Virus record (IMG/VR): IMGVR_UViG_3300029906_000004
Location: 82,176-103,003 of that record
Origin: a virus
Reading direction: 5' to 3' (one strand)
DNA: 20,828 nucleotides
Shown: piece after piece, positions 13,601-16,614 of the stretch
Layout of the letters: every line of letters begins with the position of its first letter
How positions within the stretch are numbered: position 1 is the first letter of the stretch
Translations under genes and position numbers: made by a program
Notes under the pieces: model-generated
The model's input: the letters and a program-made list of their open reading frames with translations, nothing else
The model's database searches: none
Told to the model about the DNA's origin: nothing

Positions 13601-15015
13601 GTCATTATACTCCTGTTTGGTTAAATAGCGGTACAATAACTGCTAGTACTCAGTAGTATATGGTTGATAAAGGAGTACTTAAAGATTACTGGACTAATTG
13701 GAATAGTGCTTTAACCGCAGGTATGTATTCGTTAAGTGAGTGGGGAACTAATGGACCTTCAAATGCAGGTTATCAATACGGAACAGTTGCTATATTCAAA
13801 TCTGGTACTAGTTCGTATGGTGGAGCTATATCATAGCTTTACATGCCTCATTCAAATGCTGAAGCAGGAGTGTATGCCGCATGGAGAACTACATATGGAG
13901 TAAGTAGTTCTAAATGGACTAACTGGCATTATCTGCTAGATACTGGTAACTACGCATACTTCCTGAATAACTATTATGTGAAGAAGTCGGGTGATAATAT
14001 GACTGGAGATTTATACACTTCTGCTAGTTTCACTGCAAATAATGGTTTGTATCTCAGTAATAGCCACGGTAGATTCATATGGGACTCTGGAACATCAGCT
14101 GCTTGGTTACAGGGGGCTAGTAGTGGCAATATGTATCTATCTGGTTTAAACGCTACTACTTTATCATCTTTAAGGCTTTATACTACATCTATACAAACAA
14201 ATTTAGGTGTCCTTTATAAGTATTTGGGTTATAGTACTGACGGAGTATAGAACTATATTGTAGTATCATATGCCTATAATAGTGGTTCTGTTATTAACGG
14301 TAGTGGTTGTGTAGGCTCTTTTATATTAACTCGAGGAAGTGCTGCTGAATGGAACGGTAAAGTTGAGATACATGTCAATGCCGGCGGTCAATATAATACA
14401 AACGTATTTGGTTATTACAAATTCGGTTCCGGATGGACAGTTGAAGGTATGTTTAAAATATATTACAGTGGTTCATATTATTTAGCTATTAGAACTGCAG
14501 CATCTTCTTAGTATAGATGTTACTTTAACGGAGTTACTACAAACAGTTTCTCTCCATTTATAATAAGAGCTTCTGCTGCTAGTAGTGTTGCTGCTATATC
14601 CGGTACAGCAAATGGTACTATAGCTGCGTCTGGAAATATAACCGCATAGGGAGAGATAACAGCGTATGCCGCTTCAGACATTAGATTAAAGACTGATATT
14701 ACTCATCTATCTGCAATAGACGTTGTTCGTAGAATGAACGTAGTTGAATATAATTGGAATGAAACTGCGTTGCAGCTAAAAGCTGATAAGACTGTACATG
14801 GATACGGATTAATTGCGCAAGAGCTAGAATCTCTAGTACCTGAAGCAATTAACTATAATATGTTTAATGCAGATTATCTGGGTATAGATTACACTAAACT
14901 AGTACCATTTGCATTATCAGCTATATAGGAAGTCGATGATGAAGTAACTAAATTAAAGAAAAGAGTAAAGAAACTAGAAGTTAGATTAAGTAAATATGAA
15001 CGTATTATTGACTGA
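10603..15015 (+). CDS. Long tail fibre with C-terminal peptidase S74 intramolecular chaperone, 1470 aa, TAG=Gln
   Basis: One frame with no TAA/TGA from ATG 10603 to TGA 15013-15015, absorbing five track ORFs. It carries GE(I/V)SAYG repeats, APxxxDTLGEIA motifs and two knob-like domains. The S74 domain shows SDIRLK (S at 14674), GLIAQE, GIDYTKLVP, AI*E and a terminal coiled coil. Confidence 0.9.
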
Positions 15016-15157
15016 TAGAGAACTACTTGAATAGATCTACTTATTACTAGTATAGATTTATAATAAAGTAAAAGAGATAGATAATGATGAAAAGTAGTTT
15101 GGTATGAATTTACTTGCAAATCTAGTAAGTACTAAATCAACAAGAGTATAGTCATGA
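14996..15157 (+). CDS. Small hypothetical protein, 53 aa, TAG=Gln
   Basis: MNVLLTDRELLE*IYLLLV*IYNKVKEIDNDEK*FGMNLLANLVSTKSTRV*S. It overlaps the fibre stop, and its TGA overlaps the peptidase ATG (ATGA 15154-15157). Confidence 0.65.
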
Positions 15158-16614
15158 AGTATTTTACATTTAAAGAGATGATTTAGTCTAATACAGCTAA
15201 AGCTAGAGGTATAGAGAACATACCAGATTGGGATGATATATATAGGCTGTAGAGGCTAATAGAGACGATTCTAGACCCTTTGAGGGAATGGTACGGTTCG
15301 CCTATTATAGTCAACTCAGGGTATCGCTGTGAGGCTTTAAATAAGGCTGTAGGAGGTGTTTCTACAAGTTATCATTGTTTTGATAGAAATACAGAAATAT
15401 TAACAAATAACGGATGGAGAACTTACAAAACAATCAAACCTTACGATAAAGTTCTATCTATGAATTTAGATACGCAGCTATTAGAGTTTGTAGATATAGA
15501 TTCGATATAGATACAGCCTTATAAAGGAAATTTGATATATGCCGATAATAAACATGTATAGTTCGCTGTTACAGACGAACATAGGATGGTAGTCAGAAGT
15601 CCGGCTCACAAATATGTTAGAAAAACAGACAGAGTATTAACTGAAGCAGAACAAAAATATTTTGATTCGCTAAAGACAGATAATGATAAGTTTCATATAG
15701 AGTTATCTAAAGATATTATTGGAAAGAGACGAATATTTAAAACAGCGGGTATATCTGCTCACACCAACGAATATAATGTTGATATATTAAGAATGTGTAT
15801 GGCAGTTATTTCTGACGGTTTTATCTAGAAGAAAAAGGGAATAGGTAATCCTTAGATAGCTTTTAACTTAAAGAAAGAAAGAGATAAACAAGAATTAGAA
15901 GATATATTAAATAGACTAGGTTGGAAGTATAATAAACATTATAGTAGTTCTCATGAAAGACATGGAATCAAAGGAGTATATCATTATTACATAAGCTATT
16001 CTGAATGTGCAGAGATATTTGAAATAATCGGTATGACCAAAAAAATACCTCGTTGGTTTTTAACGTTAAAGCCAGAAATACTTAGACAACTAGTAATAAG
16101 TTATGCTAAGTTTGATGGTTCGTTCGATAAACGTGAGGGTAATAGCGGAATCTCCATCTTTTCTATAGACGAACACAACATAGATATGCTTCAAGCAATG
16201 TGTGTATTATGTGGTATGAGGTGTGTCAAGAAGGAGCTCAAAAATTATAAGATAACTTTTGGTGATAAACAATATGTATTAAAAGAGTTCTTCATATTAT
16301 ATATTACTCAAAACACAGATGAGAGTAGAATGCAAGAGAATCTATATCACAGATTCTTTTACAATTCTACTGTGTGGTGTGTAAATAATAAAAATACCAC
16401 TCTCGTGACCCGTCGTAACGGAAAAGTATCTATATAGGGTAACTGCCACGGTTATGCTGCTGATATTACTGCTGGTAATAAGACTGAGAATAAGAAGTTA
16501 TTTAATTATATAAAAGATAATCTACCGTTTACGGAATTAGGCTGGGAAGGTAATGGTACATGGATACATATTGCGTGGACTGGTAGTAACGATAAAGAAA
16601 TATTTTACACATGA
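15154..16614 (+). CDS. M15-family Zn peptidase (putative endolysin) interrupted by an intein; 486-aa precursor, 130-aa spliced product
   Basis: N-extein MKYFTFKEM...LDPLREWYGSPIIVNSGYRCEALNKAVGGVSTSYH and C-extein CHGYAADI...WIHIAW. Splicing restores the M15 SxHxxGxAxD motif plus the downstream WxH Zn ligand. Seven TAGs are read through. Confidence 0.88.
15376..16443 (+). mobile_element. Intein with LAGLIDADG homing endonuclease domain, 356 aa
   Basis: Block A CFDRNTEILTNNGW, block B VTDEH (TxxH), LAGLIDADG-like MAVISDG and SYAKFDG, block F/G VWCVNNKNTTLVTRRNGKVSI*GN with +1 Cys at 16444. Confidence 0.92.

Follow-up and report, generated by a model that had tools for sequence, protein, structure and literature searches.

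What is a 356-residue insert doing directly behind the first zinc ligand of a phage cell-wall peptidase? The question is raised by one gene (15154-16614; plus strand, as are all features below) in a 20,828-nt stretch of viral DNA, here called the window, which is the final 20.8 kb (82176-103003) of the complete genome, 103,003 bp with terminal repeats, of a gut crAss-like phage (IMG/VR record IMGVR_UViG_3300029906_000004). A preliminary description of the window had recognized an intein at this position and had proposed that its splicing could serve as a timer or gate on lysis. Our analysis indicates that the gene very probably carries a selfish, mobile class-1 intein, predicted to be competent for splicing and homing, in the indispensable zinc motif of a putative phage endolysin. 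The element belongs to a large family found across gut Bacteroidota phages.

The interrupted peptidase and its insert

Under translation table 15, in which TAG is read as glutamine, 15154-16614 forms a single open reading frame (ORF) of 486 codons followed by a TGA stop. The 74-residue N-extein (15154-15375), which ends in S72-Y-H74, matched positions 1-66 of the Peptidase_M15_3 profile (PF08291, E 5e-14), and the 56-residue C-extein (16444-16611), which starts with C431-H-G-Y-A-A-D437, matched positions 69-108, the score being 59.7 bits against a curated cut-off of 23.2. The profile of PHROG 894, named 'endolysin', was covered at 47-112 and 114-165 (E 1e-27). Because the matches to both profiles are contiguous, the two extein pieces are adjacent halves of one domain, and the preliminary description was right in placing the insertion directly after the first zinc-ligand His, where it splits SYH/CHGYAAD.

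The zinc triad of this domain comprises H74 (15373-15375), which is the first ligand of the LAS-type H-x6-D...H arrangement, D437 as the second ligand, and H472 as the third, within W-I-H472-I-A-W (16561-16578). The pattern is contiguous only once the insert is removed. Uninterrupted relatives of about 130 residues are numerous, and the corresponding residues H74, D81 and H116 are invariant in 32 of them. The closest intein-free relative, P0131, is 71% identical; its alignment with 1lbu, the Zn DD-peptidase of Streptomyces albus, runs over S-R-H154-M-Y-G-H-A-A-D161 and places His74 opposite His154. The zinc ligands of 1lbu are H154, D161 and H197. An AlphaFold2 (AF2) model of P0131, with a predicted local distance difference test (pLDDT) of 97, had 1lbu as its best structural match (template modelling score 0.74, E 7e-6), followed by Hedgehog N-domains, LdcB/VanY and the endolysins LysB4, LysECD7 and Ply500.

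When the complete 103-kb genome was searched for eight families of peptidoglycan hydrolases, M15_3 matched this gene only, and phage lysozyme, Amidase_2, Amidase_3, SLT, GH25 and M23 gave no match. These results point to the gene as encoding the phage's M15/LAS-type peptidoglycan peptidase, a putative endolysin. The same fold and the same H-x6-D...H triad are found in 1lbu, LdcB/VanY, LysB4, LysECD7, Ply500 and the endolysin of phage cr114_1, whose gp035 is the uninterrupted counterpart and is annotated as endolysin. All of these enzymes are single uninterrupted chains, whereas the triad of the window protein would be assembled only after splicing.

The insert (15376-16443) runs from Cys75 to Asn430, and the reading frame is continuous through both of its junctions, ...S72-Y-H74 / C75-FDRNTEILT and VSIQ-G429-N430 / C431-HGYAAD. 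Four splicing blocks were located: block A, CFDRNTEILT (15376-15405), which begins with Cys1; block B, V-T140-D-E-H143 (15568-15582), a TxxH motif; block F, V-W-C409-V-N-N (16372-16389); and block G, VSIQ-G429-N430 (16426-16443), in which Q428 is a TAG codon. Between blocks B and F lie two LAGLIDADG motifs, LRMCMAVIS-D221-G-F (15787-15822) and LRQLVISYAKF-D321-G-S (16081-16122). When tallied over 179 copies of the element, TxxH was kept in 176, the 'WC' of block F in 178, and the DG in 166 for the first and 164 for the second LAGLIDADG motif. The reading with code 15 and the profile searches that had been proposed at the outset gave one 486-residue ORF in which M15_3 and LAGLIDADG_3 were above cut-off (for the latter 28 bits against 22.5 in Pfam, E 2e-6) and Hint_2 was below it (E 0.04). 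A sequence search of PDB with the intein gave no match, and neither did NCBIfam.

An AF2 model of the whole precursor (pLDDT 89, predicted template modelling score 0.75) resolved the insert into a Hint domain with a nested LAGLIDADG endonuclease. The top Foldseek matches of this model were PI-SceI, TliVMA, PhoVMA and PI-PfuI (E 1e-14 to 1e-11, probability 1.0), followed by the free LAGLIDADG endonucleases I-SceI, I-DmoI and I-OnuI, also with probability 1.0; the split intein 6zgq was in the list too. The best-matching inteins, PI-SceI (Sce VMA1), TliVMA/PhoVMA and PI-PfuI (1vde/1ef0, 7qsu/7qst, 1dq3), likewise combine Hint with a nested double-motif LAGLIDADG endonuclease and share Cys1, TxxH, the terminal Asn and Cys+1 with the insert. 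They differ from it in sequence (about 10% identity), in the penultimate Gly and block-F Cys of the insert, and in their hosts, which are of the ATPase or replication-protein type rather than a small cell-wall peptidase.

The insert therefore has Cys1, TxxH, a terminal Asn with Cys+1, the Hint fold and an in-frame position for which intein-free alleles exist, as class-1 inteins do, and it has two helices with D221-G and D321-G together with the fold of a double-motif LAGLIDADG endonuclease. Judged by sequence and predicted fold, these features confirm a class-1 intein with a predicted LAGLIDADG homing endonuclease. Assignment to class 3 was also considered. Class 3 inteins, typified by that of mycobacteriophage Bethlehem DnaB, have a Trp-Cys-Thr motif, and the Cys at F:4 is common to them and the insert. 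Only this block-F Cys fits; class 3 was ruled out by the invariant Cys1, by Met at B:12 (Met or Leu in the family) in place of Trp, and by Gln at G:5 in place of Thr.

In the precursor model the secondary structure of the extein was retained, but the short helix 73-76 of the mature-type model (P0131) was lost, and residues 69-72 had a pLDDT below 50. The active site is thus presumably not formed in the precursor. We propose that the 486-residue precursor would be made late in infection and, lacking a signal peptide, would be cytoplasmic. Cys75 would convert the His74-Cys75 bond to a thioester, Cys431 would receive the N-extein, cyclisation of Asn430 would free the 356-residue intein, and an S-to-N shift would leave a 130-residue enzyme reading S-Y-H-C-H-G-Y-A-A-D. 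Since only this spliced product would have the complete H74/D437/H472 zinc site, lysis by this enzyme would depend on splicing. The freed intein would act as a site-specific endonuclease that, in co-infections, cuts empty endolysin alleles and copies itself in (homing). As a selfish passenger in an indispensable motif, it would be protected in that imprecise loss would destroy the enzyme.

The family at this site and its mobility

More than 100 clusters of proteins 456-535 residues long were retrieved by a word-indexed search, at 85-100% query coverage and 36-89% identity, and an exhaustive HMMER search agreed. When the junction residues were counted with a hidden Markov model (HMM) that placed no requirement on them, 108 representatives had S-x-H before the intein. 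Cys1, the penultimate Gly and the terminal Asn were each present in 108/108 of these M15-hosted copies, and the +1 residue was Cys in 107 and Ser in one. The preliminary description had called a cell-wall peptidase an atypical host; a lysis enzyme is indeed unusual in the literature searched, but the implied rarity does not stand against 108 representatives and, among the clusters looked up, up to 1014 members.

The two carrier clusters with 1014 and 402 member sequences come from contigs of roughly 95-102 kb. The arrangement is also carried by the cultured, plaque-forming Bacteroides fragilis phage BF766P4, which uses the standard code and whose gp4 (472 residues) is annotated 'hypothetical protein', and by the crAss-like phage cr53_1, whose gp75 (L002:1882-3387) is annotated 'VOG2995; phosphoesterase'. 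One NCBI carrier entry was auto-named 'Hom-end-associated Hint'; annotation pipelines therefore saw the domain but missed the host. POG2995 is the intein-bearing mycobacteriophage recombination directionality factor (RDF) metallophosphoesterase in Kelley 2016 (PMC5050341), and the intein at 15376-16443 also matches PHROGs named 'thymidylate synthase' and 'PhoH-like'. Such PHROG and VOG names probably reflect inteins carried by members of the families and not the host proteins themselves.

Several single sequences depart from the common arrangement. P0011 (487 residues, 81% identical to the window protein) is the sole M15-hosted copy with Ser+1, reading GN / S-I-G-A-A-A-D. In P0218, a metagenomic protein of 459 residues, a related intein lies one residue later (S-A-H-Q / C...GN / S-G-K-A-V-D), again with Ser+1, and its host looks like Peptidase_M15_4, with weak Pfam support (E 1e-3). 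In the metagenomic P0133 (410 residues, N-terminally truncated), an M15-like protein with a contiguous S-Q-H-K-F-G-R-A-L-D motif, a related intein follows the third zinc-ligand His (..S-W-L-H / C...GN / C..), which makes a second insertion site in this enzyme family. No mini-intein was found at the site among the sequences examined, and the short matches were fragments; P0117 consists of an M15 domain that lacks the intein and has a long tail attached.

The family HMM also detected 66 full-length related inteins in other host proteins, at 24-30% identity and bounded by C...GN / S/C/T. These belong to the same family, but their exteins and sites differ and their +1 residue is often Ser or Thr. 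Cys1 was present in 65/66, the block-F Cys in 56/66, the penultimate Gly in 59/66 and the terminal Asn in 65/66, and the LAGLIDADG acidic residues were kept, with D/G at the second motif in 63/66. Precomputed Pfam labels on these matches included ribonucleotide reductase small subunit, Mu-F and T4 gp19, and several hosts were metagenomic proteins of 900-3000 residues with two to four intein copies (P0147, P0141, P0154, P0184, P0202). Because the Gly-Asn end and the block-F Cys are equally kept in unrelated hosts, they are not adaptations to the zinc peptidase.

Alleles lacking the intein are found close to the window phage. Its major capsid protein shares 92% identity with the cr114_1 and cr125_1 proteins (Crassvirales, Suoliviridae, Aurodevirus), and both of these phages have an uninterrupted 131-residue endolysin with ..S-Q-H/C-L-G-E-A-A-D.. 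at the site. Matches to BF503P1 and BF486P2 were confined to extein DNA. On either side of the gene a sister contig, L010, aligned with the window at a nucleotide identity of about 73%, and the difference between the gaps was 1096 - 28 = 1068 nt, which is exactly 356 codons, in frame at the junctions. The boundaries first given for the 356-residue intein (15376-16443, +1 Cys) were exact, and the search for empty sites among Crassvirales that had been suggested with them was successful. Intein-free alleles read an unbroken SxH-x-x-G-x-A-A-D, in agreement with the earlier statement that the SxHxxGxAxD motif of the window gene exists only after splicing.

The residue after the His was mostly Leu in 44 intein-free alleles and Cys in 1/44, compared with Cys in 107/108 occupied ones, indicating that Cys+1 travels with the intein. 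The Cys found in cr114_1, which lacks the intein, may have been left behind by intein loss or may offer a ready site for insertion.

Inteins and exteins had different degrees of relatedness to those of the window gene: identity of intein versus extein was 88% versus 53% for P0014, 56% versus 29% for P0039 and 39% versus 54% for P0063. The element is carried by two extein subfamilies, type I, which is an ordinary M15_3, and the divergent type II, which has a longer Cys-rich N-terminus and no Pfam match. In the extein tree type II formed one clade (support 97). Its two groups, IIa and IIb, share 46% identity with each other and about 22% with type I. In the intein tree, the type-II-hosted inteins fell into two separate supported clades. 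With the type-II group fixed before the tree was seen, the approximately unbiased (AU) test rejected a single type-II intein clade (p 6.6e-5, log-likelihood difference 153). The conflict between the trees and the AU test indicate that the intein crossed between endolysin lineages at least twice, entering the same motif each time.

Genetic code, genome setting and rival readings

The gene (486 codons plus TGA) needs TAG to be read as Gln. Seven in-frame TAG codons lie in it (Q11, 33, 119, 136, 225, 234 and 428), the first at codon 11, and apart from these recoded codons the frame is undisturbed. TAG428 lies opposite a true Gln codon in the standard-code homolog of BF766P4, and both this alignment and the ORF structure fit TAG = Gln. 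Under table 11, 15154-16614 contains three ORFs of at least 60 residues (76, 80 and 134), which is the three-fragment break described earlier; counted fully, the seven TAGs give eight pieces. The accompanying claim that the locus is invisible to gene calling fails, as the full-length 486-residue protein, identical in sequence, is already in a public protein collection. Single-protein searches for related loci returned one distant candidate-phylum match and one close viral contig.

Neighbouring genes likewise need TAG read-through, among them a 1470-residue fibre gene with 30 TAGs, and under table 15 the window is a tight gene array, all on one strand. Nearly all late genes of the genome need read-through, yet ARAGORN found no tRNA with a CUA anticodon in the window or in the complete genome, where it detected four tRNAs (Arg-tct, Leu-tag, Leu-taa and Met-cat); the assignment of TAG to Gln therefore rests on the ORF structure and on TAG428. 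A small ORF of 52 residues with four TAGs (14996-15157) lies upstream and overlaps the end of the fibre gene and the start of the lysin gene. It has a counterpart upstream of the cr114_1 endolysin (L001:2810-3004), and it showed neither a PHROG match nor an obvious transmembrane or holin-like hydrophobic stretch.

Several points weigh against reading the element as a selfish, splicing- and homing-competent endolysin intein. The usual penultimate His is replaced by Gly429, and Cys409 of block F stands where most class-1 inteins have Asp (F:4, the position being set by pattern). Inteins without the penultimate His can splice, though some do so poorly. Beside the gene, whose neighbours have no PHROG match, neither a holin nor a spanin was recognized, so that the name 'endolysin' depends on homology and on the gene's being the sole hydrolase found. 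The closest intein-free sister found is only about 73% identical in the flanks, so the gain or loss need not be recent. Splicing, endonuclease cutting and peptidoglycan hydrolysis are all predictions from sequence, and selfishness and a regulatory side-effect can coexist.

The last point leads to the regulatory role proposed for the intein in the preliminary description, that of a post-translational gate or timer on lysis. Zn, redox state or temperature would then hold up splicing, or stop it, through the cluster of His(-1), Cys1, Cys409 and Cys+1, and the active enzyme would be released only when it is due. We consider this improbable. The zinc site does require splicing, the gene encodes the only hydrolase detected, and three Cys and a zinc-ligand His meet at the splice centre. 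Some inteins are Zn-sensitive. Conditional inteins responsive to redox or to extein interactions have been described (PMC6195587, PMC5790916). However, relatives within unrelated host proteins conserve Cys1, the block-F Cys and the Gly-Asn end just as well, so that these residues are traits of the family; close relatives lyse without the intein; and the retention of the endonuclease motifs together with hopping between extein lineages is the behaviour of a parasite. In Gram-negative hosts, moreover, it is normally the holins that time lysis. Expression of the late crAss genes extends over tens of minutes (review, PMC10136315), long enough for ordinary splicing to run its course. TAG read-through may also set timing, and early TAG codons, the first being codon 11, would be a more obvious candidate than the intein for any gate on this gene. 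Nothing specific favors the timer or gate.

A more specific form of this idea, which we rate slightly lower still, is that maturation of the endolysin is held by a metal- or redox-sensitive trap at the splice centre until the Zn or thiol status of the cytoplasm changes. If true, a selfish element would have come to act as a checkpoint for lysis in phages that are among the most abundant of the human gut.

It is very unlikely that the element no longer splices and has left an inactivated lysin, or persists as an endonuclease only, while lysis is carried out by an unrecognized enzyme. Such a state would agree with the missing penultimate His and the replaced Asp at F:4; splicing is here a prediction from sequence, and many ORFs of the genome have no assigned function. 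Against this, the nucleophiles and the zinc triad are invariant over 108 copies at 36-89% identity, which indicates selection on both splicing and the enzyme, the frame is intact except for the recoded TAGs, the same architecture is present in a cultured plaque-forming phage (BF766P4), and the search of eight hydrolase families in the complete genome found no alternative hydrolase.

That the insert is not an intein at all, but a homing endonuclease ORF that is intron-borne or free-standing, or else a domain permanently inserted into the peptidase, can practically be dismissed despite the sub-threshold Hint_2 match (E 0.04) and the empty PDB sequence search, since the frame is continuous over both junctions, all four splicing blocks (A, B, F and G) occur in it, the fold of the whole insert matches intein-endonucleases including their splicing domain, the family HMM finds C...GN / S/C/T-bounded copies in many proteins, and the deletion in the sister is exactly in frame at the junctions. 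The element thus looks like a real intein, common in gut-phage metagenomes, and a selfish insertion rather than a lysis timer.

Known systems and meaning for gut phages

One parallel lies in mycobacteriophages, in which inteins occupy TerL, a RecB-like nuclease, the RDF metallophosphoesterase and a TOPRIM protein (PMC5050341). These inteins, too, follow invariant active-site residues, a placement that is usual for inteins (Kelley 2016, PMC5050341), and they are likewise sporadic among related phages and horizontally spread; none of them lies in a lysis enzyme. A parallel of another kind is Hedgehog, in which a LAS-like 'Hedge' zinc domain is joined to a Hint 'Hog' autoprocessing domain (PMC6027127), and the N-domains of Hedgehog were the second-best structural match of the extein. 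In Hedgehog the Hint domain follows the zinc domain and cleaves with cholesterol transfer, whereas in the window gene a full intein lies within the zinc motif and would religate its flanks. We regard this shared combination of LAS and Hint as a coincidence, having seen no evidence that it has a common ancestry.

A literature search that covered neither InBase nor most subscription journals turned up no description of inteins in an endolysin, a lysin or an M15 peptidase. Within Crassvirales, Yutin 2021 and the 2023 review (PMC10136315) assign the inteins of Suoliviridae to TerL, with no mention of the endolysin. Payne & Hatfull 2012 found 0/224 LysA genes interrupted, and neither the 2016 survey (Kelley, PMC5050341) nor a 2025 survey of actinobacteriophages lists a lysin or peptidase as an intein host. 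Such surveys place inteins almost only in proteins of replication, repair, nucleotide metabolism and packaging, and the family described here extends this range to lysis enzymes.

Some of the commonest crAss-like phages of the human gut are among the carriers. The intein accounts for wrong or empty annotations in this group, namely 'phosphoesterase/VOG2995' in cr53_1, 'hypothetical protein' in BF766P4 and 'Hom-end-associated Hint'. For the mining of lysins from gut phages, the active enzyme would be the predicted 130-residue spliced product and not the 486-residue ORF. Lysis is a phenotype that is easy to time, and because a cultured, standard-code B. fragilis phage has the same arrangement, the question of whether an intein is parasitic or regulatory becomes directly testable on lysis.

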